Shown here piece after piece: positions 21,948-43,044 of a stretch of DNA of 50,018 nucleotides (its first letter is position 1; the number at the start of each line of letters is the position of its first letter). The DNA comes from Fibrobacter sp. (GTDB lineage Bacteria > Fibrobacterota > Chitinivibrionia > Chitinivibrionales > Chitinispirillaceae). Below the pieces are notes generated by a model that worked only from the letters and a program-made list of their open reading frames with translations, did no database searches and was not told where the DNA came from. The position numbers and the translations under genes are program-made. The stretch covers positions 1 to 50,018 of the forward strand of contig JAAYEB010000355.1 in NCBI GenBank assembly GCA_012728995.1, written 5' to 3'.

Positions 21948-22399
21948 TGAACATAAAATACGAACAATCTATTAATCTTTTTTGAAATAGTAAAGATTAT
22001 TTGGGGCTAAAGGCTTCTGTTTTCCCGCTAACGGGACCACCTGGCACTTTTAGTGCAGCTTAAGACTTGGTTTTGGGGGCACGCACGAAGTCTGGTTGCA
22101 GTATAAGATTACCTTATAACTGACTTCCATAGCATTTATTTTTATTCTTTCTTCAACTTCTACCCCCAGTCCCTCTTCTCTCACAGGAGATGGGGGTCCG
22201 AAAAACATTAATGAATACCAGGAATAAACTGTAATAGCTTATACATAAACCTATACTTTATCCACTTCAGTGGATTAAGAAACACAAGCTCTCCGCGGCC
22301 GTTATGTTGAGCTTCACCTGCACCAAAGAAAAGCAGCTTTTATTGTTCGAGTTCCGCTAACCTCATTTACTTTGTAAAATTCAAATAAGATTTTCATGT

Positions 22400-22468
22400 C
22401 CGCCGAGCGCACACGACCCCCGCGGTAGTTCATTGCAGCTCTGAAACTCCTGTTTGGGGGCGTGTGGT
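22400..22468 (+). repeat. Module C copy 1: long hairpin cgcacacgacccccg...[~35 nt loop]...gggggcgtgtg
   Basis: An 11 bp GC-rich stem with a single-nt bulge. Further copies at 23159-23228 and 23799-23868. Loop substitutions differ between copies while the stem is preserved. Confidence 0.7.
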
Positions 22469-22837
22469 AACATTTGAATAGTTCCAAATTAAAGAGAATT
22501 TAGAAACCAATCAGAAATAATCGCAATAAAATTACAAACAATCGGATAAAATCGGAAACAATAAAATAGAAATTACAAACTTTCCAGTATTAATGAATTG
22601 AACAATTAAGAATATAATCAAATTTTCTTGCTTGTTTCCACTTCAGTGAATTAAGAAACACAAGCTCTCCGCGGCCATTATGTTGAGTTTCACCTGCACT
22701 TAAGAAAAGCAGCTTTTACTGTTCGAGTCCCGCTGTACTCATTTACTTATTAAGCGAGGATAAAAAATGTTTTCGAGCGGGCGAGTTTAAAAGCTGCGTA
22801 CTTTTTTAGACCCTAAAAATTTTACTTCTTTTTTTAT

Positions 22838-23015
22838 GTGCAGGTGATTAGCGAAACATGGCCGCCAAGGGCATTTTGTCATTACCATTCTTTAACCGTA
22901 AGGTGTTTAGCCTTCGGCTTTGCTATATTATATAATTTTGCGGTTTGGGTACTTTTTTGCCCTGGAAAAAGTACCTCGTCGTTCGGGCGCGAAAGCCCGT
23001 ATAATTTATTTTTAC
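22838..23015 (+). repeat. Module B copy 1 (the second copy is at 23567-23745). Contains a UUCG-loop hairpin (agccTTCGgct), a GNRA-like hairpin (gggcGCGAAAgccc), and a segment that is the inverted complement of part of module A.
   Basis: The two B copies are ~95% identical. 'gtgcaggtgattagcgaaacatggccgcc' is the approximate reverse complement of the module A segment 'ccgcggccgttatgttgagcttcacctgcac'. Confidence 0.65.
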
Positions 23016-23158
23016 TACCATTCTTTATATAATGTAAAATTCAAATAAGATTTTCATGTTCGCCGGGCGCACACGACCCAGCTTTAATAATGACAATTTT
23101 TCAAATGATAAGTTTTATGTTCGCCGAACGCACTTTTTGATTTTAAAAGATTATCTGG

Positions 23159-23228
23159 GTCGCCGAGCGCACACGTCCCCCGCGGTAGTTCATTGCAGCT
23201 CTGATAATCCTTTTTGGGGGCGTGTGGA
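23159..23228 (+). repeat. Module C copy 2
   Basis: Same hairpin as 22400-22468, with a single A to T change in the stem (cacacgTccccc). Confidence 0.7.
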
Positions 23229-23798
23229 AACCTGTGTATAGTTACGGTTTACAGGAAAATCGGAAACCAATCAGAAATAATAGGATTAAAATTACAAACA
23301 ATCGGATAAATCGAAACCAATAAGATAGAAATTACAAACTTTCCAGTATTAATGAATTGAACAATTAAGAATATAATCAAATTTTCTTGCTTGTTTCCAC
23401 TTCAGTGAATTAAGAAACACAAGCTCTCCGCGGTCGTTATGTTGAGCAGCACCTGCACCAATGAAAAGCAGCTTTTTTGTTGGAGTCCCGCTGTACTCAG
23501 CGGCGATTTTAAAAGCTGCGTAATGACTAAAGTCATAAAATTCTTTTTTACATTCCATTCTTTTTCTGTGCAGGTGGTAAGCGAGACATGGCCGCAAGGG
23601 CACTTTTGTCATTACCATTCTTTAACCGTAAGGTGTTTAGCCTTCGGCTTTGCTATATTATATAACCTTGCGGTTTGGGTACTTTTTTGCCCTGGAAAAA
23701 GTACCTCGTCGTCCGGGCGCGAAAGCCCGTATAATTAATTTTTTACTACCACTCTTAAAAAATAATATTATTTGAAATTAAGAATTAAGATCATCTGG

Positions 23799-23868
23799 GT
23801 CGCCGAGCGCACACGACCCCCGCGGTAGTTCATTACAGCTCTGTAACTCCTGTTTGGGGGCGTGTGGA
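23799..23868 (+). repeat. Module C copy 3
   Basis: Same hairpin as the other C copies. The loop reads 'cattacagctctgtaact'. Confidence 0.7.
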
Positions 23869-23996
23869 ATCCTGTGAATAATTCCTGTTTACCAGAAAAT
23901 CAATAAAACAACTCCCTAATATCCACTATACTAACTCACCAAGAACCCAGATTGCCGGTTCACCCGGAGTTATGTGCTCGGCTGCGCCTACGCGAA

Positions 23997-24120
23997 CCGG
24001 CTTATGCGCTCGGCGTATAAAGTTAATATCTTTATCTGGTAATAGGCTTATGCGCTCGTCGTATAATGTAAATATCTTTATCTGGTAATAGGCTTATGTG
24101 CTCGGCATAACAAATTATCC
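23997..24120 (+). repeat. Iteron-like tandem ~46 bp repeats (ggcttatgcgctcggcgtataaagttaatatctttatctggtaatag, about 2.5 copies)
   Basis: Direct tandem repetition read from the sequence. Each unit carries the near-palindrome ttatgcgctcggcgtataa. Confidence 0.7.
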
Positions 24121-24261
24121 TCACTGTAATTTAATAGTCGGGACTTGTGCAGTCGGCGTAACATAAATATCCTTATTCTTATTCTATTCTATAAACAGGA
24201 TAATAATAGTAAAGATTATTATCAGCTAAAGACTTCCTATACAAAAAATAAATTTGGACAT

Positions 24262-31411: not shown

Positions 31412-32227
31412 TCACAATAACTCTTTAATTTCCAAATATTCTTCTTCAAACAACCATTCGTTTTTAGATGGAACTCCAGAAGTCTTTTCAATAATCTTCT
31501 GCGCATTTTTGATTCGGTCCGAAAATGGAGGATGTGATGAAAATGACGAAAGGATCTTGTTTGAATCACCATAACGATCCAGAAGCAAAGAAAAGAATGA
31601 ATTCATCCCGTACGGGTTTATTTTTGCTGCAGTAGTGTAAGCCACAGCGCAACTGTCTGCCTGATACTCCTTATCTCTGCTGAATTTCAAGAATGCCATG
31701 TTCTCCAGCAATGCTGTTACTGCAACAGATATTGAAGCAGAATCATTACCAAACAAAATAGTATTCACATTGCTCACAAATGTTTGTTGAACAAGAAGGT
31801 CACGACTGTGATACTTTGTAATATGACCAATTTCATGAGCAAGAACACCTGCAAGTTCTGAAGTGTTTCTGACATTTTCAAGAAGCCCCCTGTACACAAA
31901 AACATGCCCGCCAGGAATTGCAAATGCATTAATCTGATCATCATCAATAATATCAAAGGTAAAATCAATGTTTCTGTCATTCTGTGATGCGGCAATATGT
32001 TTGCCAAGAGAATCAACGAACCGGATAACTCTGCTGTTTTTTGTATATGGAGGATAAGTCGCTTCATCTGAACGTATTTGCTGATAAAACTGATTACCCA
32101 GAACAATCTCATCCTCCTCTGTTATAACATAGGGAGCTAAAACTTTTGTAACACTCTGGCACCTGAAGAAAGGAATAAACAAAGCATACGTTAAAATCAG
32201 AAACATTTTAAGTGTTTTCATATACAA
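31412..32227 (-). CDS. M48-family zinc metallopeptidase (BepA/YcaL-like), secreted
   Basis: Signal peptide. 'AIPGGHVFVYRGLL...LAGVLAHEIGHITKYH' M48 HExxH signature. Confidence 0.75.
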   Translation of the reverse strand: MYMKTLKMFLILTYALFIPFFRCQSVTKVLAPYVITEEDEIVLGNQFYQQIRSDEATYPPYTKNSRVIRFVDSLGKHIAASQNDRNIDFTFDIIDDDQINAFAIPGGHVFVYRGLLENVRNTSELAGVLAHEIGHITKYHSRDLLVQQTFVSNVNTILFGNDSASISVAVTALLENMAFLKFSRDKEYQADSCAVAYTTAAKINPYGMNSFFSLLLDRYGDSNKILSSFSSHPPFSDRIKNAQKIIEKTSGVPSKNEWLFEEEYLEIKELL

Positions 32228-32412
32228 AAATCCTCTTTTTCCTTAAAAAAAAACTTTATGTTTCATAATATACGATTAATGCCCGGAAATGACAATCCAG
32301 GTTGAATTTGAATTTATGAAGTATTAATTTTTGCCGGATACTACATTTCTGGCATAAAAGTAGTTGCGATTTTTATATTTTTGTTTTAGATTATAGATTA
32401 GAAGGTTAAAAT

Positions 32413-32472
32413 ATGATGAACTCACAGTATTTAACAGTAGTAGTCCTCGGTGTCGTGCGGTTTTTGCCGTAG
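32413..32472 (+). CDS. ilv leader peptide 1 (19 aa, MMNSQYLTVVVLGVVRFLP), Val/Leu-rich
   Basis: The short ORF has a GAAGG RBS, 5 Val and 2 Leu among its 19 codons, and is followed by antiterminator and terminator alternatives. Confidence 0.65.
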   Translation: MMNSQYLTVVVLGVVRFLP

Positions 32473-32497
32473 GAGCCCAAGGACTGTATTGTTAAAA

Positions 32498-32536
32498 GGC
32501 TCCTGCGGATAAAAAATCAGCAGGAGCTTTTTTTTT
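32498..32536 (+). terminator. Attenuator terminator 1: gctcctgc/gcaggagc stem plus a T9 run. The competing antiterminator pairs 'aggagcc' (32471-32477) with 'ggctcct' (32498-32504).
   Basis: Read directly from the sequence. This is classic leader-peptide attenuation geometry. Confidence 0.65.
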
Positions 32537-32545
32537 GAGGACAAA

Positions 32546-32659
32546 ATGAAGCAAAAACTTTCAAATTTGATTTCAAATACAATAAACCTGATAATTTTAT
32601 CCCTCACATTAGTCTCTGTAATCGTGACAGTCGTGGTCGTGGTTTCAGTTCCACCGTGA
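32546..32659 (+). CDS. ilv leader peptide 2 (37 aa, MKQKLSNLISNTINLIILSLTLVSVIVTVVVVVSVPP), Ile/Leu/Val-rich with a run of five consecutive Val codons
   Basis: The short ORF sits immediately after terminator 1. Its 3' end (gttccaccgtgagggg) can pair with the 5' half of terminator 2 (cccctggcggtggaac). Confidence 0.65.
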   Translation: MKQKLSNLISNTINLIILSLTLVSVIVTVVVVVSVPP

Positions 32660-32685
32660 GGGGTTGTATTATAAAAAGATAAAAG

Positions 32686-32719
32686 CCCCTGGCGGTGGAA
32701 CCGACAGGGGCTTTTTTTT
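32686..32719 (+). terminator. Attenuator terminator 2: gcccctg/caggggc stem plus a T8 run, immediately upstream of the ilvB RBS
   Basis: Read directly from the sequence. Confidence 0.65.
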
Positions 32720-32758
32720 ATTGGCCAATTAATAGAAAAATAGAAGGAGAGTTTAAAA

Positions 32759-34420
32759 ATGAAATATTCAGGAGCACAGATTACAATCAAACTGCTTCAA
32801 ATGCATGAGATTGATACCGTTATTGGAATTCCTGGCGGATCAAATCTTCCATTGTACGATGCACTTTATAACAGTACAATTCGCCACATTCTGGCACGGC
32901 ACGAACAGGGAGCCGGATTTATTGCCCAGGGTATTGCACGCTCCAGTGGAAAAGCTGCAGTCTGTTTTGCAACAAGTGGCCCAGGCGCAACAAACCTTCT
33001 TACTGCTATTGCAGATGCCAAACTTGATTCAGTTCCAATAATTGCAATTACAGGCCAGGTACCAGGCCCAATGATTGGTACTGATGCGTTTCAGGAGGTT
33101 GATACCATTGGAATGAGCATGCCGGTAACAAAACATAATTTTCTTGTTCGCTCAGCTCAGGAATTGCTGTCAGTTATTCCTGAAGCTTTCAGAATAGCTT
33201 GTTGCGGACGAGGTGGGCCTGTATTGATCGATATACCCAAAGATGTTCAGCAGCAGATTATCGAAGTTGATTTTTGGCCAACCCCTGCTCCCTGTAATTT
33301 AAACATATTTGCTCATGATTCCCAAATTGAGGAGACAGTTTCGTTAATAAACAGTTCGAAACGACCGGTCCTGTATATTGGCGGAGGTGTAATTAATGCC
33401 GATGCTTCGCGTAATTTGCTGGCATTTGCACGAAAAAACAGTATACCCATAACATCGACACTTATGGGACTTGGTGCAGTTCCAAATAGTGAACCTCTTT
33501 ATCTTGGAATGCTGGGAATGCATGGAGCGCGTTTCACCAATAAGATCCTGCATGAATGCGATCTGCTTCTTGCGCTTGGAGTTCGCTTTGACGACCGGGC
33601 AACCGGAAAGGTATCCCATTTCTGCCCGCAGGCAAAAATTATCCATGTTGATATCGACAAAGCCGAAATTAACAAAATAAAATCAGCAGACATTGCAATT
33701 ACTGCGGATGTTAACGAATTCCTTTCTAAACTTCTTGAGCGAATTCAAGATAATTCCCGTGATGAATGGTTATCATACATCAATTCTTTAAAAAAGATGT
33801 TCCCTTTTCCGGCAATAGAAAATGATAATCCATACAGTCCGTTAAATATTATTCGAACGATTTCAGCGTTGGCACAATCAGATTCAATCGTAACAACAGA
33901 TGTAGGACAACACCAGATGTGGGTTGCACAGATCTATCCGTTTAACCGCCCACGAACATTTCTTACGTCGGGTGGTCTGGGCACTATGGGATTTGGCCTT
34001 CCGGCTTCAATCGGAGCTGCTTTGGCAAATCCGGATAAACAGATAATCTGTTTTACCGGTGATGGTTCTCTGCTGATGAATATCCAGGAACTTGATACAG
34101 TTGCAGAATTAAACCTGAATATAAAAATAATACTGCTCAACAATGGTCACCTTGGACTCGTTCGTCAACAACAGGAACTATTTTACAATAAAAATTATAT
34201 TGCATCCCGTTTTTACTCGAAACCATCATTTTGTACCATTGCCAATGGATTTGGAGTTAAAGCCATAGACCTTTCAGATGAGACCAAACCTGTTCCTGTT
34301 CTCGGCAGTGTTCTTTCGGAAAATGGCCCGTGTCTGATAAATATCCCCATACAGGAAACATCAAACGTTTTACCAATAGTTCCACCAGGTGCAGCTAACC
34401 ACGAAATGATTGGAGACTAA
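32759..34420 (+). CDS. ilvB: Acetolactate synthase large (catalytic) subunit
   Basis: TPP-enzyme motifs ('GIPGGSNLPLYDAL', 'CFATSGPGATNLLTAIADAKLDSVPIIAITGQV', 'GLGTMGFGLPASIGA...TGDGS'). GAAGGAGAG RBS. Confidence 0.9.
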   Translation: MKYSGAQITIKLLQMHEIDTVIGIPGGSNLPLYDALYNSTIRHILARHEQGAGFIAQGIARSSGKAAVCFATSGPGATNLLTAIADAKLDSVPIIAITGQVPGPMIGTDAFQEVDTIGMSMPVTKHNFLVRSAQELLSVIPEAFRIACCGRGGPVLIDIPKDVQQQIIEVDFWPTPAPCNLNIFAHDSQIEETVSLINSSKRPVLYIGGGVINADASRNLLAFARKNSIPITSTLMGLGAVPNSEPLYLGMLGMHGARFTNKILHECDLLLALGVRFDDRATGKVSHFCPQAKIIHVDIDKAEINKIKSADIAITADVNEFLSKLLERIQDNSRDEWLSYINSLKKMFPFPAIENDNPYSPLNIIRTISALAQSDSIVTTDVGQHQMWVAQIYPFNRPRTFLTSGGLGTMGFGLPASIGAALANPDKQIICFTGDGSLLMNIQELDTVAELNLNIKIILLNNGHLGLVRQQQELFYNKNYIASRFYSKPSFCTIANGFGVKAIDLSDETKPVPVLGSVLSENGPCLINIPIQETSNVLPIVPPGAANHEMIGD

Positions 34421-34422
34421 TT

Positions 34423-34704
34423 ATGAATAATTCATATACAGTTCTGAAACTCAGAGTTAATAATCATCCAGGTGTCATGTCCCACATTACCGGTTTATTC
34501 TCGAGGCGTAATTTCAATCTTGAAGGGATACTTTGTGGTAAAATCGGTGATGGTTCCCTGAGTATTATTTATCTTCTGGTAAACCAACAGCAAAAACTTG
34601 AACAGGTAATGGCACAACTGGAAAAATTATATGATGTGAAATCTGTTTCCATAGCTGATAATTTTGACCTGAACCGGTTTATAATTCTATCCAGTTGTGA
34701 TTAA
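34423..34704 (+). CDS. ilvN: Acetolactate synthase small (regulatory) subunit, short ACT-only form
   Basis: 'TVLKLRVNNHPGVMSHITGLFSRRNFNLEGI' ACT domain. Begins 3 nt after the ilvB stop. Confidence 0.8.
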   Translation: MNNSYTVLKLRVNNHPGVMSHITGLFSRRNFNLEGILCGKIGDGSLSIIYLLVNQQQKLEQVMAQLEKLYDVKSVSIADNFDLNRFIILSSCD

Positions 34705-35056: not shown

Positions 35057-36667
35057 TTGAATTTATCGAAAGAAATATCCCGACGAAGAACATTTGCCAT
35101 CGTGTCGCATCCAGACGCAGGCAAGACTACTTTGACCGAAAAAATGCTTCTTTATGGTGGGGCGCTCAAGATGGCCGGATCGGTTACTGCCCGCAAAAAA
35201 GAGAGAACAACCGTATCTGACTGGCTTGAAATCGAAAGGAAAAGAGGTATATCTGTAAGCTCTACAATTCTGAATTTCGATTACAATGGTTTCAGGATAA
35301 ACCTGCTTGATACTCCCGGACATAATGATTTTTCGGAGGACACATACAGGGTGTTGATGGCTGTTGATTCTGTGATAATGGTCATTGACGGTGGAAAAGG
35401 AATAGAGCAGCAGACCCGCAAGTTGTTTGAAGTATGCGGGAAACGCAAAATCCCCATTATTACTTTCATCAACAAAATGGACAGACCAGCACTTGATACC
35501 CTTGCACTTTTAGATGAGATAGAGAAGGTTTTAAATATCAGTTATTACCCTGTAAACTGGCCGCTTGGAAGTGGAACCGACTTCAAGGGAATATGGGATC
35601 GCAGACAAAAAAAGGCTCACCTGTTTGAGCGTACTCCCAAAGGTGCATACAGAGCACCTGTAAACAATTGCAGTCTTGATGATCCTCTTATCCGTGAACT
35701 TCTCCCTGTTTCTACCTACGAAACTGTATGCAGTGAAATAGAGATGATTGATTATGTAGGCTCTGGTCTGGATATGGATATGGTGGCAGAAGGACAAATG
35801 ACACCGGTTTTCTTTGGCAGTGCAGTTAATAATTTTGGAGTTCAACTTCTACTTGATGGTTTTCTGGAATTCTCTCCTTCACCTAAACCGCGGCACACAA
35901 AAAACAGAATTGTAAGACCGGAAGAGAATGTTTTTTCAGGTTTTGTGTTCAAGATACAGGCAAACCTCGACCCTCATCACCGCGACCGCATGGCTTTTAT
36001 AAGAGTAGTTTCCGGTAAGTTTACTCGTGACATGCCGGTTATTCACGCAAAAACTGGAAAAAAAATCCGCCTTTCAAATTCAAGCAATGTTTTCGGCCGG
36101 GAGAGAGAATCTGTGGATGAGGCGTATCCGGGGGATGTTATTGGGGTTGTCGGAAAAGATTTCTTCAGTATTGGCGATACTCTGAGTGAAAACTCAGAAA
36201 TAATGTATAGTGAAGTTCCGCGGTTTTCTCCGGAATGTTTTGCTTTTATTCACAATCCTGTTCCGTCCAGTTTCAAACGATTTCAAAAAGGGCTCGAGCA
36301 GCTTGTTCAGGAGGGACTTGTGCATCTTTTTACAGACGCCAATACGTCACAAAAAAACTATATACTGGGTGCCGTTGGTTCGCTTCAGTTTGATCTGGTA
36401 AAGTTCAGGCTGGAATCGGAGTATGGTGCAGAGTCCAGACTTCAAACAGCTTCTTGGACAATTGCAAGATGGATTGATAATGAAAGTACAGATTTATCAA
36501 AGCTTTCCATGCCCCTAAATTCTGCTCTCGTAAAGGACAGGGTCGGTAAGTATGCCATTTTGCTGGAAAGCAACTGGCAGCTTCAGTTTTTTCTTGAAAA
36601 TAATAACGGAATTAAATTGTTCGAATCTCCAGATATGTTAAAAGAACCAATAATGCAGCTAAATTGA
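35057..36667 (+). CDS. prfC: Peptide chain release factor 3 (translational GTPase)
   Basis: 'RRRTFAIVSHPDAGKTTLTEK', 'LLDTPGHNDF', 'NKMDR' G-domain motifs. N-terminus is colinear with RF3. TTG start with a GGAG RBS. Confidence 0.9.
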   Translation: MNLSKEISRRRTFAIVSHPDAGKTTLTEKMLLYGGALKMAGSVTARKKERTTVSDWLEIERKRGISVSSTILNFDYNGFRINLLDTPGHNDFSEDTYRVLMAVDSVIMVIDGGKGIEQQTRKLFEVCGKRKIPIITFINKMDRPALDTLALLDEIEKVLNISYYPVNWPLGSGTDFKGIWDRRQKKAHLFERTPKGAYRAPVNNCSLDDPLIRELLPVSTYETVCSEIEMIDYVGSGLDMDMVAEGQMTPVFFGSAVNNFGVQLLLDGFLEFSPSPKPRHTKNRIVRPEENVFSGFVFKIQANLDPHHRDRMAFIRVVSGKFTRDMPVIHAKTGKKIRLSNSSNVFGRERESVDEAYPGDVIGVVGKDFFSIGDTLSENSEIMYSEVPRFSPECFAFIHNPVPSSFKRFQKGLEQLVQEGLVHLFTDANTSQKNYILGAVGSLQFDLVKFRLESEYGAESRLQTASWTIARWIDNESTDLSKLSMPLNSALVKDRVGKYAILLESNWQLQFFLENNNGIKLFESPDMLKEPIMQLN

Positions 36668-37097: not shown

Positions 37098-37496
37098 ATG
37101 AGCGAAATTGTAAATTCTAAAATTGAACATTATGTAACCGTTACAAAAGCCCTCTCCGATTCGAACCGCGTACGGGCTCTTTGCGCTTTACGCAAAGGTG
37201 AATTGTGCCTGTGTCAGATTATCGAATTACTCGGCCTTGCTCCTTCGACGATATCCAAACACATGTCAATTCTCAAACAGGCAGGTTTGGTTAACAGCAG
37301 AAAAGACGGACGGTGGGTGTATTACAGGCTGGCCGATAAAAAAGATGAAATTTTTATACAGGATATAATCAAACTGTCGCTTTTGGGGCTGGAACAGGAT
37401 CAACAAGTTGTGGCTGATGACAGGCAAATGGCAGAAATCAATTCCTGGGGGCTCGAAATGTTATGTAAACGTAACAAGGGTTGTTGTGAAAACTGA
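37098..37496 (+). CDS. arsR: ArsR/SmtB-family metalloregulator (arsenite-responsive repressor)
   Basis: 'ELCLCQIIELLGLAPSTISKHMSILKQAGLV' HTH. The paired cysteines (CLC) sit at the canonical ArsR As(III) site. Confidence 0.8.
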   Translation: MSEIVNSKIEHYVTVTKALSDSNRVRALCALRKGELCLCQIIELLGLAPSTISKHMSILKQAGLVNSRKDGRWVYYRLADKKDEIFIQDIIKLSLLGLEQDQQVVADDRQMAEINSWGLEMLCKRNKGCCEN

Positions 37497-37570
37497 CCAT
37501 ACCCGGTTGAGGAACGAAATTCGCCGTATTTTGCTTTAAAAAAACATACAGTATTGAAAGGACCTGGATT

Positions 37571-38008
37571 GTGAATAAACTGAAAATTCTCTTTCTCTGT
37601 ACAGGTAATTCCTGCAGAAGCCAGATGGCTGAAGGGTGGGCACGGTTTCTGAAAAATGACACTATTGAAGCGTATTCAGCAGGTGTCGAAACACATGCTC
37701 TCAATCCTTATGTTGTAAGGGTTATGGCTGAAGCGGGGGTGGATATTTCCACTCAGTATTCAAAACATCTTGATGAGGTAAAGCAAATCTCTTTTGATTG
37801 GGTAATAACAGTTTGTGACAACGCAAATGAAAGCTGTCCGGTTTTTCCGGGAAAAGTGAAAAGGTTTCATATAAGCTTTGATGATCCGCCGCGACTGGCG
37901 AGAAATGCAAAAACCGAAGAAGAAGCACTTTCACATTATCGAAGAGTGCGCGATGAAATACGTGAATTTGTAGATTCAATTCCTGGTGTTTTGACAGAAT
38001 CGAATTAA
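37571..38008 (+). CDS. arsC: Arsenate reductase, LMW-PTP / thioredoxin-coupled type
   Basis: 'ILFLCTGNSCRSQMAEGW' CX5R P-loop plus downstream Cys ('VITVCDNANESCP'). Confidence 0.8.
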   Translation: MNKLKILFLCTGNSCRSQMAEGWARFLKNDTIEAYSAGVETHALNPYVVRVMAEAGVDISTQYSKHLDEVKQISFDWVITVCDNANESCPVFPGKVKRFHISFDDPPRLARNAKTEEEALSHYRRVRDEIREFVDSIPGVLTESN

Positions 38009-38023
38009 AATTGAAGGGATGGC

Positions 38024-39130
38024 ATGATGAAAATAGACAAAAACGGTGATGATCTGGCCAAATTAGAGTCACAGGTTGTCCAGGAAGAACGGGCGTTGAA
38101 CTTTTTTGATAAGTACCTTTCTATATGGGTGGCAGTTTGTATCGTTTTGGGCACTGGAACAGGATATCTCTTTCCCGGAGCTGCTTCGATCTTGAGCGGT
38201 ATCGAGGTGGCGAATGTTTCTCTGCCGGTCGCAGTTGTATTGCTTATCATGATGTTCCCCATTATGCTGAAAATCAGTCTCAAGGAGGTAATTGGTGTCA
38301 GCCGAAACAGCAAACCACTTTTGTTAACGCTCATAGTCAATTGGGCTGTCAAACCGTTTACCATGGCACTGATCGCCTGGTTATTCATGCGGATTTTTTA
38401 TTCCAATTTTATCCCCGACGACTTACAAAGCGAATATATAGCCGGAATGATTCTCCTTGGACTTGCACCTTGTACAGCAATGGTATTTGTCTGGACGTAC
38501 CTTGCAAGAGCTAATATTCATTATGCGCTCGTTCAGGTATCTGTAAACGATCTCATTATACTTGTGTTGTTTGCGCCTCTTGGTAAATTTCTTCTTGGAG
38601 TTACGACAGATTTCCCGGTACCGCTTGCGACCATATTTTTTTCTGTCCTGTTCTATGTGGCAATACCTTTGACAGCTGCAGGCTTGACACGTTTTCTTGT
38701 TATCAAAAAGAAGGGTATCGAATGGTTCGAACTCAATCTTGTAAAAAGACTGGATTGGGTGACACCAGTTGGTTTGCTTATTACCCTCGTACTGATCTTT
38801 ATATTTCAGGGTAACAAAATTATCAATCATCCGCTTCACATCCTGCTTATTGCAATACCGTTGATTTTGCAGACTTATCTGATTTTCTATATTGGTTATT
38901 TGGGAACCAAGGCGTTGAAAATACCATTTTCAGAAGCTGCTCCATCAACGTTTATTGGAGCAAGCAACTTTTTCGAGCTCTCGGTTGCGGTTGCGTTGAT
39001 TCTTTTCGGAATGAATTCCGGTGCCACACTGGCTACGGTTGTTGGCGTACTTGTGGAAGTGCCGGTAATGTTGTCGCTGGTTAAAATCATGATAAAAAAT
39101 AAGAACAAATTTGCATTCAAGAGGTTGTAA
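38024..39130 (+). CDS. acr3: Arsenite efflux permease, ACR3 family
   Basis: 10-TM BART-superfamily topology. 'LSIWVAVCIVLGTGTG...FPIMLKISLKEV' matches the ACR3 family. Sits in the ars operon context. Confidence 0.75.
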   Translation: MMKIDKNGDDLAKLESQVVQEERALNFFDKYLSIWVAVCIVLGTGTGYLFPGAASILSGIEVANVSLPVAVVLLIMMFPIMLKISLKEVIGVSRNSKPLLLTLIVNWAVKPFTMALIAWLFMRIFYSNFIPDDLQSEYIAGMILLGLAPCTAMVFVWTYLARANIHYALVQVSVNDLIILVLFAPLGKFLLGVTTDFPVPLATIFFSVLFYVAIPLTAAGLTRFLVIKKKGIEWFELNLVKRLDWVTPVGLLITLVLIFIFQGNKIINHPLHILLIAIPLILQTYLIFYIGYLGTKALKIPFSEAAPSTFIGASNFFELSVAVALILFGMNSGATLATVVGVLVEVPVMLSLVKIMIKNKNKFAFKRL

Positions 39131-39196
39131 CTGTCAGATCTGAAAAACAGTATTGCTGCATAATCAAAAAATAACAATTAGAATGAAAGGAATAAT

Positions 39197-39997
39197 ATGT
39201 CAGGTACAAATGAAAATAAAATCAGAAAAGCAGTCCGAGAAAACTACGCCAGGGTAGCGGAAACAACAAAGGGGGCTTCCGGATGTTGCTGCACTCCATC
39301 CTGCTGCAGTCCGTCAAGCACAAGCAGTGCTGCTGATACGAGTGTAAATATGGGTTACAGTCAGGATGAAGTTGAGTCTGTTCCTGAAGGCTCGAACATG
39401 GGTCTGGGGTGTGGTAACCCGCAGGCAATTGCGTCTCTGAAACCGGGTAAAACCGTTCTCGACCTTGGTTGCGGCGGCGGTTTCGATTGCTTTCTTGCAG
39501 CAAAACAGGTTGGAAATGAGGGTTATGTTATCGGTGTGGACATGACACCGGAAATGGTGGACAAAGCAAGAAAGAATGTTGCGGAATCAAAGTATGATAA
39601 TGTTGACATAAGATTGGGTGAAATCGAGAATCTTCCGGTTGCAGACAATTTTGTTGATGTGATTATTTCCAATTGTGTGATAAATCTTTCACCAGACAAA
39701 CAACGGGTTTTTGATGAAGCATTCCGGGTGCTCAAATCGGGCGGACGCATCGCTGTATCCGATGTAATCGCATCAGCACCGATACCTGAAAATGTAAGAA
39801 CCGATCTGGCACTTCATGCCGGTTGTATTGCCGGAGCTTCAACATCTGATGAAGTCATCGCCATGTTGCAGAAAGCTGGTTTCAGCGACATTCGTGTTGC
39901 ACCAAAGGAAGAGAGCAAATCCTTTATCAAGGATTGGGCTCCAGGAAGCGGTGCGGAGAATTATGTGGTATCTGCAGATATTCAGGCTGTGAAGTAA
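39197..39997 (+). CDS. arsM: Arsenite S-adenosylmethionine methyltransferase
   Basis: SAM motif I 'VLDLGCGGGFDCF', N-terminal Cys cluster 'GCCCTPSCCSP', and further conserved Cys ('GLGCGNP', 'ISNCVINL'). Confidence 0.85.
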   Translation: MSGTNENKIRKAVRENYARVAETTKGASGCCCTPSCCSPSSTSSAADTSVNMGYSQDEVESVPEGSNMGLGCGNPQAIASLKPGKTVLDLGCGGGFDCFLAAKQVGNEGYVIGVDMTPEMVDKARKNVAESKYDNVDIRLGEIENLPVADNFVDVIISNCVINLSPDKQRVFDEAFRVLKSGGRIAVSDVIASAPIPENVRTDLALHAGCIAGASTSDEVIAMLQKAGFSDIRVAPKEESKSFIKDWAPGSGAENYVVSADIQAVK

Positions 39998-40014
39998 GAG
40001 ATGATGCATTTGCT

Positions 40015-40050
40015 GAATTAAAAACAGGAGGGTAGTTCTGGGCTCCCTCC
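40015..40050 (-). terminator. Hairpin (ggaggg/ccctcc) followed on the minus strand by a T5 run; likely terminator of the minus-strand arsP-ccdA operon
   Basis: Read directly from the sequence. Lies ~100 nt downstream of the ccdA stop. There is no T-run on the plus strand. Confidence 0.4.
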
Positions 40051-40154
40051 AATCTAACGAAAAGTGTCATCGAAGCTAATCAGCCCCACAACGCATGGTT
40101 TTCTTCATAATCGCCCCAGAATGTATTCTGAATATCCCACCCGTTTTGATTGTT

Positions 40155-40841
40155 TTATATATTGAGTCCAAAGTTATGTTGAAGAATAAGATATATGCCT
40201 GCAAGAAGCATTATCATGGCAGTTATTCTTCTGACCCATATTTCAATAACTGTAAGTTTTTTGAATGCCGTACCGATAAAATTGGCTGCAAAAGCCAGAA
40301 TAAGCGCGAACGCAATCACTGGCAAAGCAGTTCCGATTCCATAAAGTGACGACATCAAGGCGGAGTTTCCCTTTACAGCAAGAGGAATCAGCGCTCCGAA
40401 AAACAGACCTGCCGAGACAGGGCAGAATGCCAGAGCAAAAACAAATCCCAGAAGCCCCGAACCCCATAACCCCATGCGGTCAACACGTTTCTGCAGATTT
40501 CCACTCATGCCTCCGCCAAAGCTGATATTAAAAATTCCAAGAAGCAGTATGCCGACAACAACCAGGAGCGGGCCGATAAACAGATTCATGTATTTTTGAA
40601 GAAACATCGAAACGCCGGGTATCATCTGAAGACTTCGTGAGACCAGTAATGCAACTCCCAAATAGGCCAGAGTTCTTCCCAGGGTATAGAGAAGACCGGC
40701 AAAAAGGACCAGCCGGGTTTTCTCAACCTTGCGGCTCACATAAGAGATCGCAGCAATATTTGTCGCAAGCGGACACGGACTGATAGAAGTGAGTATTCCA
40801 AGCCAGATTGCTGTGCCTATGTCAATTAATACCGAGTCCAT
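40155..40841 (-). CDS. ccdA: CcdA/DsbD-family transmembrane thiol-disulfide electron transporter
   Basis: 6-TM protein with 'ISPCPLATNIAAISYV' and a second conserved Cys ('AFCPVSAG') typical of the DsbD_2/CcdA family. Confidence 0.75.
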   Translation of the reverse strand: MDSVLIDIGTAIWLGILTSISPCPLATNIAAISYVSRKVEKTRLVLFAGLLYTLGRTLAYLGVALLVSRSLQMIPGVSMFLQKYMNLFIGPLLVVVGILLLGIFNISFGGGMSGNLQKRVDRMGLWGSGLLGFVFALAFCPVSAGLFFGALIPLAVKGNSALMSSLYGIGTALPVIAFALILAFAANFIGTAFKKLTVIEIWVRRITAMIMLLAGIYLILQHNFGLNI

Positions 40842-40855
40842 GCCTGAGGCCTCCC

Positions 40856-41359
40856 CTATAATTGAGTTTTTATTTCTGTCTGAATATATTCTGCAAACTT
40901 TTCCTGGTCACGAAGAAGAGTCCATACCTTTTCGAGATTTTTCCAGTCTGTTTCTTTACCATCGACCAGGGTGGATACTATAACCGATTTGGTATATAAT
41001 TTATAATCTTCGACAAAATGCTTATTCTCTGGCAGATCGATATTGATTGATTTGAATTGGAGCAGCTTATTGTCAATCTGATCTTTAAAGCCGGAATCAA
41101 TAGCCTGTTTTGTAAGCTTTTCAATCAAGTTACATGAGTAGCACCGGTTTGTAGTGTGGAAATAGTATACTGTCACTTTTTTATTTACTTCTTTTTGATC
41201 GTTTTCAGATGAACTCTTTGCAGTTTTCTCTGAAACAGTTGTTTTTTTCTGTACCGATTGACCTTCAGAACTCTGACAGGAAGAAAATGTTCCGGTCAGA
41301 AAGACCACAATGGTACCAAAAGCAATAACGTTTTTGTACATGGTATTGAATAATTTCAT
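40856..41359 (-). CDS. Secreted thioredoxin-fold CxxC protein (putative periplasmic reductant for the ars system)
   Basis: Signal/lipobox ('FLTGTFSSC'). 'VTVYYFHTTNRCYSCNL' CxxC in a Trx-like context. 14 nt upstream of ccdA. Confidence 0.4.
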   Translation of the reverse strand: MKLFNTMYKNVIAFGTIVVFLTGTFSSCQSSEGQSVQKKTTVSEKTAKSSSENDQKEVNKKVTVYYFHTTNRCYSCNLIEKLTKQAIDSGFKDQIDNKLLQFKSINIDLPENKHFVEDYKLYTKSVIVSTLVDGKETDWKNLEKVWTLLRDQEKFAEYIQTEIKTQL

Positions 41360-41388
41360 AAAAGCAGATTCCTTTCAGTAAATAATTA

Positions 41389-41622
41389 TTATTTCAGCAG
41401 ATCCTTGATTTCAGCTATCCGCGGCACCCTGCCTGAGATCCTGACTTCACCGTCAATCGCAAGCGCTGGTGTCATCATTACCCCCATTTTCATTATTTCG
41501 TTTATGTCTTCTACTTTGATCACCTCTGCTTCAATTGAGGCTTCGGTTACCGCCTGCAAAGCTGTTTCATAGAGTTTTTTACATTTCGGACAACCTGTGC
41601 CGAGGACCTGGATCTTTTTCAT
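41389..41622 (-). CDS. Small thioredoxin-family protein ('redox-active disulfide protein 2'-like, CPKC)
   Basis: 77 aa, 'KIQVLGTGCPKCKKL' Thioredoxin_3 fold. This family commonly accompanies arsP permease genes. Confidence 0.7.
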   Translation of the reverse strand: MKKIQVLGTGCPKCKKLYETALQAVTEASIEAEVIKVEDINEIMKMGVMMTPALAIDGEVRISGRVPRIAEIKDLLK

Positions 41623-41727
41623 AATGTTCTCCTTTTAATGAATAAAATTAACACTGTTTTATTTTTATGATTCCAGACAGATTCCTTTTTGACTGTAACA
41701 TATCATGATTCGACAGCCTTTCTGTAA

Positions 41728-43044
41728 TCAAAAAAACGTTCCGTAAAGCAATCCGGAAACCGTAGCCATGATTACAACCAGGACTATGAATGTTGCAGTC
41801 TTTTTTAATCCCATAACTCCGTTTAAAACCAGCATGCTTGGCAGTGAGAGTGCTGGTCCGGCTAGAAGCAGCGCCAGGGCCGGTCCTTTACCCATACCGC
41901 TTCCGATCAATCCCTGAAGAATAGGTACTTCTGTAAGGGTTGCAAAATACATGAATGCTCCGGCAATGGATGCGAAGAAATTTGCTCTAAGAGAATTTCC
42001 GCCAACTGCAGCAGATACCCACTCCGACGGGATAATTCCTTCATTGCCAACTCTTCCCAAAAGGAACCCTGCGATGAGAACTCCAAACAGAAGCAGCGGC
42101 AGAATCTGTTTTGCAAAGGTCCATGTTGATGCAAACCAGTCGCCTATTTCGCCTTTGTCGGTACTTGTAACAACAGAAAGCCCTATTGAACCGGCAGCAA
42201 AAGCGGTTACCGGCAAGAATTCGTGAGGTATGGATTGTGGAGCGATCAGTGCAATTGCAGCAGCAGGAACAGTTGCGGCCAAAACTTTCCACCATGCCAT
42301 TTTGAACCAGCCGATAAGGATTACTCCAAAGATCAGAGAAAATACTGAAGTTATGATCCATTTTTGTGAATAAATAGTGTGCCAGATACCGCTGTTTTCC
42401 ATTGGTTTGCCCCAGTTGGCAAATACAAGAATCGCTATCATTACGAAAAAGTAAGCGGCTGTTTTCCATAAAGGTCTGACTGTTTGTTGATCGGGCATTG
42501 CCATCTGTGCTGCGGCTTTGGCAGTTTCCTCTTTGCGGTATATAAAATGCATCGAAAGTCCGATTATTATGCTGAAAACGATAGCTCCGATTGCACGCGC
42601 AAGTCCCATTTCAATACCAAGAATCCGACCTGTAAGCACTATTGCGAGTACATTGATTGCCGGACCTGCATAAAGAAAAGCTGATGCCGGACCGATACCT
42701 GCGCCCATTCGATATATCCCTGCAAAAAGCGGTAAAACCGTACAAGAACAAACTGCCAGTACTGTTCCGGATACTGAGGCAACACCGTAGGCAAGGATCT
42801 TGTTTGCCTTTGCTCCAAGATATTTCATTACCGATGCCTGGCTTATAAATACACCGATTGCACCTGCTATAAAAAATGCAGGAATAAGACACAAAAGAAC
42901 ATGCTCCCTGGCATACCACTTTACTAAATGAAGAGCTTCGAATATGGCGTTATCGAATCTTGGTATCCCTACCGGCAAAAAAAACATTCCGAGAAAGGTT
43001 GCCGCGATAATAAGCAGCGGTTTTGTTTCCTTTTTCCAGTCCAT
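41728..43044 (-). CDS. arsP: ArsP-type (DUF318) permease, putative organoarsenical (MAs(III)/roxarsone) efflux
   Basis: Multi-TM permease with 'LAVCSCTVLP', corresponding to the ArsP 'TPFcSCS..P' vicinal-cysteine motif. Located downstream of arsR. Confidence 0.7.
   Translation of the reverse strand: MDWKKETKPLLIIAATFLGMFFLPVGIPRFDNAIFEALHLVKWYAREHVLLCLIPAFFIAGAIGVFISQASVMKYLGAKANKILAYGVASVSGTVLAVCSCTVLPLFAGIYRMGAGIGPASAFLYAGPAINVLAIVLTGRILGIEMGLARAIGAIVFSIIIGLSMHFIYRKEETAKAAAQMAMPDQQTVRPLWKTAAYFFVMIAILVFANWGKPMENSGIWHTIYSQKWIITSVFSLIFGVILIGWFKMAWWKVLAATVPAAAIALIAPQSIPHEFLPVTAFAAGSIGLSVVTSTDKGEIGDWFASTWTFAKQILPLLLFGVLIAGFLLGRVGNEGIIPSEWVSAAVGGNSLRANFFASIAGAFMYFATLTEVPILQGLIGSGMGKGPALALLLAGPALSLPSMLVLNGVMGLKKTATFIVLVVIMATVSGLLYGTFF

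Follow-up and report, generated by a model that had tools for sequence, protein, structure and literature searches.

What do two short valine-rich open reading frames (ORFs), each followed by a hairpin and a run of T residues, accomplish when they lie one behind the other in front of the same biosynthetic operon? The question is raised by the leader of ilvBN, encoding an acetohydroxyacid synthase I-like (AHAS I-like) enzyme, in a Fibrobacter sp. contig (JAAYEB010000355.1, positions 1 to 50,018; this whole stretch of 50,018 nucleotides is called the window below). The leader, with two short ORFs and two terminators, spans 32413-32719 on the plus strand and is followed by ilvB and ilvN. By comparison with homologous loci, we found that it probably consists of two full attenuators of the ivbL type, arranged in series, in which a translating ribosome mediates the control of transcription termination. 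An earlier note on this DNA had placed two short leader ORFs with ribosome-binding sites (RBSs) before ilvBN, and in this it was accurate to the base, including a second leader of 37 aa; its further statements that each leader has its own antiterminator and strong terminator (with T9 and T8), and that the units stand in series upstream of ilvBN, held up as well.

Leader ORF 1 (32413-32472, plus strand, with ATG at 32413 and the stop codon TAG at 32470-32472) encodes the 19-aa peptide MMNSQYLTVVVLGVVRFLP. Its Shine-Dalgarno (SD) sequence AGAAGG (32400-32405, 7 nt before the ATG) is identical in L166, a relative whose IlvB is 96% identical to that of the window. The predicted control codons are V9-V15, and Ile codons are absent. 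Region 1 of this unit (32432-32461), which holds the Val codons, is the 5' strand of the 1:2 hairpin, i.e. the anti-antiterminator, in the pair list of the minimum free energy structure. Region 2 (32466-32494), whose core CCGUAGGAGCC (32467-32477) contains the Pro and stop codons, has either region 1 or region 3 as its partner. Intrinsic terminator 1 (32495-32536) is composed of region 3, GGCUCCUGCGG (32498-32508), region 4, GCAGGAGC (32520-32527), and nine T residues (32528-32536); the stem extends over 32498-32528 and its core hairpin (32499-32527) has a free energy (dG) of -16.6 kcal/mol.

The SD sequence of leader 2, GAGGA (32537-32541), also identical in L166, abuts the T-run of terminator 1. 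Leader ORF 2 (32546-32659, plus strand, stop codon TGA) encodes the 37-aa peptide MKQKLSNLISNTINLIILSLTLVSVIVTVVVVVSVPP, with 9 Val, 6 Leu and 5 Ile. Since it begins only 9 nt after the terminator 1 T-run, both units very probably lie on one transcript, in series. The least certain element is region 1 of unit 2, UCCCUCAC (32600-32607), which is able to pair with GUGAGGGG of region 2. Region 2 itself, GUUCCACCGUGAGGGG (32648-32663), is the 5' strand of the antiterminator and runs across the Pro-Pro-stop codons. Intrinsic terminator 2 (32681-32719) has the stem GCCCCUG...CAGGGGC (32685-32711, dG -19.0 kcal/mol) and eight T residues (32712-32719). In both units the Val run finishes four codons before the stop, the peptides ending VVVLGVV-RFLP-stop in unit 1 and VVVVV-SVPP-stop in unit 2.

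Folding set both segments apart from dinucleotide-shuffled sequences (segment 1, z = -6.97, with none of 200 shuffles as stable; segment 2, z = -4.11, with one of 200). The antiterminator of unit 1, CCGUAGGAGCC paired with GGCUCCUGCGG, has 11 contiguous pairs and -25.8 kcal/mol, and that of unit 2, CCACCGUGAGGGG paired with CCCCUGGCGGUGG, has -30.2 kcal/mol, as against only -14.5 and -14.4 kcal/mol when region 2 of one unit is paired crosswise with region 3 in the terminator of the other. The duplexes are thus unit-specific, and in both units it is the Pro codon, the stop codon and the G-rich bases behind them (CCG-stop-GGGG/GGAG) that are complementary to the 5' arm of the unit's own terminator. 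The competing 1:2 hairpin of unit 1, with the Val-codon stretch as its 5' strand, reaches -31.5 kcal/mol, while the 1:2 fold of unit 2 through UCCCUCAC and GUGAGGGG has -23.7 kcal/mol and is not the equilibrium structure. Within the 1:2 hairpins there is a small inner hairpin in which the conserved Arg/Gly codon past the Val run (CGG/GGC) pairs with the terminal Pro codon (CCG), and at the RNA level this pairing accounts for leader peptides that end in R..P. The idea that the terminator is a generic genomic repeat was rejected, as the unit 2 motif GCCCCTG...CAGGGGC occurs a single time in the 50 kb window (0 expected).

For a measure of selection, the leader was compared with that of L166, with the 4-fold degenerate sites of ilvB as neutral reference. 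These sites are 85% identical between the two (14.9% divergence), the intergenic DNA upstream of the leader 82%, and the spacer after terminator 2 64%. Against this background unit 1 is 94.3% identical (4 mismatches in 137 sites, P = 4e-6) and unit 2 96.2% (5 mismatches in 182 sites, P = 6e-8); by this sequence comparison, both units are under purifying selection. Indels between the two leaders are confined to T-runs and spacers. Both leader ORFs are intact in L166, and the amino acid changes, Y6C and L18M in leader 1 and I26V in leader 2, leave the Val runs and the Pro-stop ends untouched. The earlier note had named the conservation of peptides and pairings in relatives as a check; in the homologous two-unit loci, too, both leader ORFs are intact, and their peptides share the Val run and the Pro-stop end. 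Five contigs with an identical IlvB were uninformative, being 100% identical from at most 1.1 kb upstream of ilvB to 2.3 kb past its start.

The downstream genes place the leader in a known family. IlvB (32759-34420, plus strand, 553 aa, ATG at 32759, SD GAAGGAG at 32743-32749) is an AHAS I-like acetolactate synthase large subunit with the Pfam domains TPP_enzyme_N/M/C; it scores 697 bits with NCBIfam TIGR00118, over the cutoff, and its best NCBIfam model is PRK08155 (856 bits, cutoff 870). IlvN (34423-34704, plus strand) is a short ACT-domain small subunit of 93 aa (Pfam ACT_AHAS_ss) with PRK08178 as its best NCBIfam model (100.7 bits, under the cutoff of 128). In species-representative genomes the closest IlvB sequences, among the matches listed, are enterobacterial AHAS I and relatives with 53-59% identity, the latter from Deltaproteobacteria, Verrucomicrobiota, Spirochaetota and Leptospira. 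Most of the loci nearest the window's IlvB (at least 52% identity) have a Val-run leader ORF before ilvB, usually followed by a detectable terminator.

As comparator for Escherichia coli ivbL we used a contig that is 100% identical to E. coli here, ivbL being annotated in 5,419 E. coli genomes. The likeness is close. In E. coli the Val run (VVVVV-GNAP-stop) also ends four codons before the stop, a GCG-CCG-UAG-GGA strand pairs with the terminator arm, the distance from stop to stem is 27 nt (26 and 25 nt in the window units), and the downstream genes are likewise an AHAS I-like ilvB and a short ilvN. Moreover, the 3' module is recognizably homologous (alignments A2 and A3). The differences are that a single unit is present in E. 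coli, as in every other enteric locus examined, where the window has two in series, that the E. coli leader has 32 aa compared with 19 aa for the window's first leader, and that the host there is a proteobacterium and here a member of the Fibrobacterota. At E. coli ivbL, more ribosome occupancy at the UAG stop leads to more termination (PMC5373646), consistent with a stop codon that is itself part of the antiterminator strand.

In the alignments that include E. coli ivbL the CCGU and GGGG/CCCC blocks are invariant, and the terminator emerges as their consensus fold, six of its pairs being compensatory. Taken over 11-15 units, pairing in the terminator helix amounts to 94.5%, five of the pairs have changed on both sides, and none of 500 shuffles was as good. 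Terminator 2 is homologous to the terminators of L167, L169-L175 and E. coli ivbL. Unit 1 carries a three-way change, GGAG/CUCC/GGAG in regions 2/3/4 where the other units have GGGG/CCCC/GGGG, i.e. a compensatory U-A pair for C-G in both alternative helices, so that both are preserved. Across 26 units from many phyla, duplexes between the stop region and the terminator arm of the same unit had a mean of -19.7 kcal/mol, compared with -15.2 kcal/mol for non-cognate combinations (permutation p = 5e-5). A covariance model of the 3' module (R1) matched only the two units in the window, both of which belong to its training set. Its matches outside that set were in enterics, Leptospira, Spirochaetia, Verrucomicrobiota and Zoogloea, in L170, and in the first units of L174 and L104, always directly upstream of ilvB.

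No Rfam family reached its threshold for the window units or the E. coli ivbL region, and the window gave no match to the T-box family (RF00230), whether at the gathering threshold or at E<=10. Below threshold there were His_leader (28.7 bits, gathering 49), Thr_leader (23.4, gathering 55) and Phe_leader (20, gathering 55), scores that we read as generic resemblance only. A further sub-threshold hit, at 32495-32776, was to RF02744 (the Rev39 5' UTR of soft-rot Enterobacteriaceae; 25.9 bits, gathering 88, E = 9.5e-6 in a small search). Many ivbL-type leaders across phyla in the set L001-L165 end in Pro-stop, often Ala-Pro-stop with CCG-UAG, because these codons form the antiterminator strand.

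The two-unit layout is shared by other loci. Close relatives (IlvB 64-96% identical) were reached by protein search and exact look-ups, the IlvB contig scans having listed matches of at most 62% identity. At least five related lineages have the layout. Besides L166, two units before ilvBN were found in L167/L168, L173, L174 and L175, which are the four two-unit loci among the fetched contigs with an IlvB 64-66% identical to that of the window. The first and second leaders are MKTIQATVVVVSVVVRKTP (19 aa) and MKFINYDTLTALMMVTVVVVVTVHLHSPPSGQ in L167/L168, MSQIILDTVVVVRNVSRLKP and MINKTLKTTSNTTLAAGTLVPVTVVVVAVVVRTLTPP in L173, and MRFIKQKTTVVVVGVLHR and MNIKNYKLTKLLISVITHVVVAVVVVVTVTPP in L174, where a divergent M48 peptidase lies upstream as in the window; in L175 both leaders are long. 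Leaders of 18-20 aa with the pattern VVV..VV-R..P occur in L167, L169, L173, L174 and L176, and long second leaders ending V-run..(T/V)PP in L167, L173 and L174. The order short-then-long is thus common to the window, L167, L173 and L174, which points to an old duplication that has been kept, with occasional loss. Two units were also seen in the more distant contigs L104 (IlvB 53% identity) and L088 (60%, GC-rich), although in L088 the near-identity of the two terminators suggests an independent duplication. A single unit is found in the other Fibrobacterota loci L169, L170, L171/L172 and L176, and one unit is also usual in the wider clade (enterics, Spirochaetota, Verrucomicrobiota, other Fibrobacterota). 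L169, from a Fibrobacter sp. metagenome-assembled genome (MAG), has at 1264-1420 one 19-aa Val leader followed by two hairpin-plus-T-run terminators, the second of which lacks a leader ORF and may be what is left of a second unit, or else serve as a back-up terminator.

From these features we infer regulated termination in vivo of the following kind. With charged tRNA-Val plentiful, the ribosome would read a leader ORF through to its stop codon, which is part of the antiterminator's 5' strand (unit 1, CCG-UAG-GAGCC; unit 2, CCACCG-UGA-GGGG). Region 2, masked by the ribosome on the stop or re-sequestered by region 1, would then leave the terminator free to form, and RNA polymerase would stop at about 32533-32536 in unit 1 or 32716-32719 in unit 2. 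With charged tRNA-Val scarce, the ribosome would instead stall in the Val run and cover region 1, and the free region 2 would pair with the 5' arm of the terminator (region 3), allowing read-through. Leu may be a further signal for unit 1, as may Leu and Ile for this lineage's unit 2. A full-length ilvBN mRNA would require read-through at both sites, so output should approximate the product of the two read-through fractions (r1 x r2); compared with one unit, basal expression would be expected to be lower, and the response to valine starvation to be steeper and to set in at a higher threshold.

The equilibrium behavior of this scheme was simulated by masking the nucleotides under a ribosome, from 15 nt upstream of the first A-site base to 12 nt downstream of it. 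For unit 1 the terminator probability was 1.00 when no ribosome was present or when one stood at codons 1-7 or at codon 16 and beyond, stop included, while it fell to 0.16 or less exactly at V9, V10, V11, L12, G13, V14 and V15. Unit 2 had a terminator probability of at least 0.8 only with the ribosome at V31 through the stop. The clean result for unit 1 is supportive of the model, not a calibrated or decisive test of it. A "kinetic proxy", in which folding stopped at the terminator loop, gave results too noisy for use.

Several observations weigh against two complete and active attenuators. Without a ribosome, unit 2 favors the antiterminator at equilibrium (terminator probability 0.06), and its 1:2 hairpin is less obvious than that of unit 1. 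The simulation gave no signal on the validated E. coli controls ivbL and ilvL or on several relatives; real attenuation being kinetic, the simulation can miss it, and its negative results carry no meaning. In a fixed register, the antiterminator helix showed one compensatory pair only and did no better than shuffles, as the pairing register differs by 1-3 nt between units of the UAG and UGA types and variation is absent from most columns; this count was replaced by the comparison of cognate with non-cognate duplexes given above. A weak promoter-like match (9/12 positions) lies within leader 2 at 32567-32595, all promoter-like matches near the units in the consensus scan being equally weak at 9/12. 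The putative promoter upstream of leader 1, a sigma-70-like TTGCGA-17 nt-TAGATT at 32364-32392 on the plus strand that is proposed from sequence only, was not among the matches of that scan; both of its hexamers are kept in L166, within intergenic DNA that is 82% identical there. Finally, the second unit is, judging by L169, L170, L171/L172 and L176, which manage with one, dispensable in evolution.

What the two units sense was the point on which the earlier note fared less well. It had seen two differently composed leaders and, from these, a multivalent AND gate with Val, Leu and Ile as inputs, in which unit 1 would sense Val/Leu and unit 2 Ile/Leu/Val, with expression only when several branched-chain amino acids are limiting. 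In favor of such a gate, which we consider unlikely, the 5 Ile, 6 Leu and 9 Val of leader 2 are set against a leader 1 without Ile, region 1 (32600-32607) would lie under a ribosome stalled at L15-I26, antitermination is predicted by the model for unit 2 stalls at any of codons 5 to 30, and the Salmonella mgtCBR leader is a precedent for signal integration by serial attenuators (PMC3641672). The relatives speak otherwise. Both of their leaders are Val-dominated, as seen for the second leaders in MKFINYDTLTALMMVTVVVVVTVHLHSPPSGQ and in those ending VTVVVVAVVVRTLTPP and HVVVAVVVVVTVTPP, the Ile/Leu-rich leader 2 of the window is peculiar to its lineage, and one of its Ile codons is already Val in L166. 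Furthermore, Val starvation alone would open both units, and there would therefore be no true AND over different amino acids. What the homologous leaders have in common is limited to the Val run and the Pro-stop end; the rest of the peptide sequence varies. Together with the Val-dominated second leaders of the relatives, this makes two valine sensors in series, both responding mainly to Val, the best reading of the conserved function; the Ile and Leu codons in leader 2 of the window, placed where stalls would mask region 1 (32600-32607), may add sensitivity here. In its full form, i.e. a conserved two-stage valine sensor of Chitinispirillaceae-like Fibrobacterota, built of two ivbL-type attenuators, one with a short leader (about 19 aa) and the other with a long one (about 32-37 aa), multiplicative and ultrasensitive to the charging of tRNA-Val, we put this forward as a tentative proposal.

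It could also be that only one unit regulates and that the other is a decaying duplicate or a back-up terminator. Single-unit relatives exist, the leader of L169 shows what one ORF with two hairpin-plus-T-run elements looks like, and L088 resembles a recent local duplication with near-identical terminators. Decay would be hard to reconcile, though, with two units that both retain the SD, the ATG, the Val run, an in-frame stop in the antiterminator strand and a matched terminator, with a conservation of both well over that of neutral sites, and with a short-plus-long pair that persists in lineages whose IlvB is only 64-66% identical, and we regard it as improbable. Even less credit is given to a role without attenuation, in which the hairpins would be ordinary terminators that end a neighboring transcript or a small RNA, or leader 2 would be a real membrane peptide, small and hydrophobic, and the Val runs would be incidental. 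Leader 2 is indeed hydrophobic at 37 aa, similar ORFs of 36-37 aa were annotated by gene callers in L173 and L175, and terminated leader RNAs or peptides can act in trans elsewhere, as is reported for trpL in Sinorhizobium meliloti. Yet the peptide is unconserved outside the Val run and the C-terminal Pro, the stop codon sits in every unit in the strand complementary to the terminator arm, and the element is always directly upstream of ilvB. Termination of an upstream gene, which the earlier note had named as a way in which its proposal could fail, was rejected because that gene, an M48 peptidase (31412-32227, minus strand), is divergent, leaving no co-directional transcript to end. A 119-aa minus-strand ORF that spans the leader region (32431-32790) is not a gene either, since indels of 4 nt and 1 nt break its frame in L166. 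Such a role is thus very improbable, and two serial ivbL-type attenuators remain our favored explanation.

The mechanism and the family, ivbL, are already known; the conserved serial duplication and the phylum set the window apart. Leader-peptide attenuation is a textbook mechanism that has been studied almost entirely in Proteobacteria and Actinobacteria, and a survey from 2010 stated that such systems had not been shown beyond these two groups (PMC2965389). A literature search, with incomplete coverage, found no description of serial leader-peptide attenuators on ilv genes, or of any in Fibrobacterota. The earlier note's remark that the arrangement is rarely documented is in line with this, although the layout is no one-off but conserved in a clade. 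The window, which is the JGI metagenome contig Ga0123335_1000642, comes from an uncultured lineage. That the host belongs to the FCB group, as the note also had it, agrees with its methionyl-tRNA synthetase (MetRS), which has 73-81% identity to proteins labeled "MAG: Fibrobacter sp." and 65-67% to those of Chitinispirillaceae, a family of the Fibrobacterota and hence of the FCB group. In addition, HLV30275.1 (Chitinispirillaceae bacterium) falls in the 90%-identity IlvB cluster of the 96% relative (P0002).

The closest functional analogue, judged by its arrangement, is found in the tandem T-boxes that are strongly enriched on ilvB and ilvN of Bacillota. There, too, two serial sensors of tRNA charging, each with its own terminator, both have to be opened, but a T-box binds uncharged tRNA directly, whereas the sensor in the window would be a ribosome translating the leader ORF. 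The T-box-T-box arrangement makes up 74% of the ilvB genes regulated by tandem riboswitches and has been argued to demand a larger drop in charged tRNA (PMC12452182). This parallel suggests that selection generally favors a steep or high-threshold response where the cell first commits to making valine. In the Salmonella mgtCBR leader, which the authors call a "singular example" of tandem attenuators, two short ORFs (mgtM and mgtP) control alternative stem-loops and downstream transcription (PMC3641672). The window resembles it in having two short ORFs within one leader. It differs in that mgtM and mgtP answer different signals (ATP and proline) in an additive manner, and in a virulence and Mg2+ transport operon, while the window units are duplicates of the same type, predicted to be mainly valine-responsive, with canonical intrinsic terminators. 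Leaders of the erm(A)/erm(T) type also have two leader peptides before one regulated gene. They work by translational attenuation, where an antibiotic-stalled ribosome exposes the RBS, with neither termination nor amino acid sensing.

If the two-stage valine sensor tentatively proposed above is correct, the locus would provide the first description of two ribosome-mediated transcription attenuators that form a natural series circuit on an amino acid biosynthetic operon, and a convergent counterpart of the Bacillota tandem T-boxes on ilvB. The ivbL-type attenuator would in that case be an ancient RNA family without an Rfam model, travelling with AHAS I-type ilvBN and spanning Proteobacteria, Spirochaetota, Verrucomicrobiota and Fibrobacterota. 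It accompanies these genes into at least four phyla, and one clade has fixed a two-unit serial version. A new Rfam-type family could be built from the E. coli ivbL region and the units described here. At about 320 nt the system should function in a heterologous host, and the compact locus offers a natural test case for the dose-response curves of serial sensors as well as a possible part for synthetic biology.

T-box leaders themselves were met with in the AHAS I-like ilvB clade. In the AT-rich, Firmicutes-looking contigs L087 (1806-2050) and L089 (2198-2453), a T-box leader (RF00230, about 120 bits) replaces the leader peptide, and L086 has an apparent T-box-like motif, GGGTGGTA.

Elsewhere in the window, about 2.2 kb without a long ORF (21986-24236) contain direct repeats of about 730-760 nt that are 84-93% identical, as well as three 46-nt tandem units (23999-24136). 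ARAGORN identified no tRNA and Rfam no match in this region, in which the tRNA T-arm-like motif GTTCGAGTCCCGCT occurs three times, two copies being exact or near-exact and one more diverged. Downstream of ilvBN, after about 350 nt, lies prfC (35057-36667), which encodes release factor 3 (RF3); the gene has the same position in L166 but not in the other relatives examined. Deletion of RF3 raises attenuation at E. coli ivbL (PMC5373646), but the adjacency of prfC and ilvBN is probably a coincidence. Beyond prfC, an arsenic resistance cluster (37098-43044) comprises genes for ArsR (37098-37496), a thioredoxin-type ArsC (37571-38008), ACR3 (38024-39130), the arsenite methyltransferase ArsM (39197-39997) and, on the minus strand, an ArsP-like permease (41728-43044).

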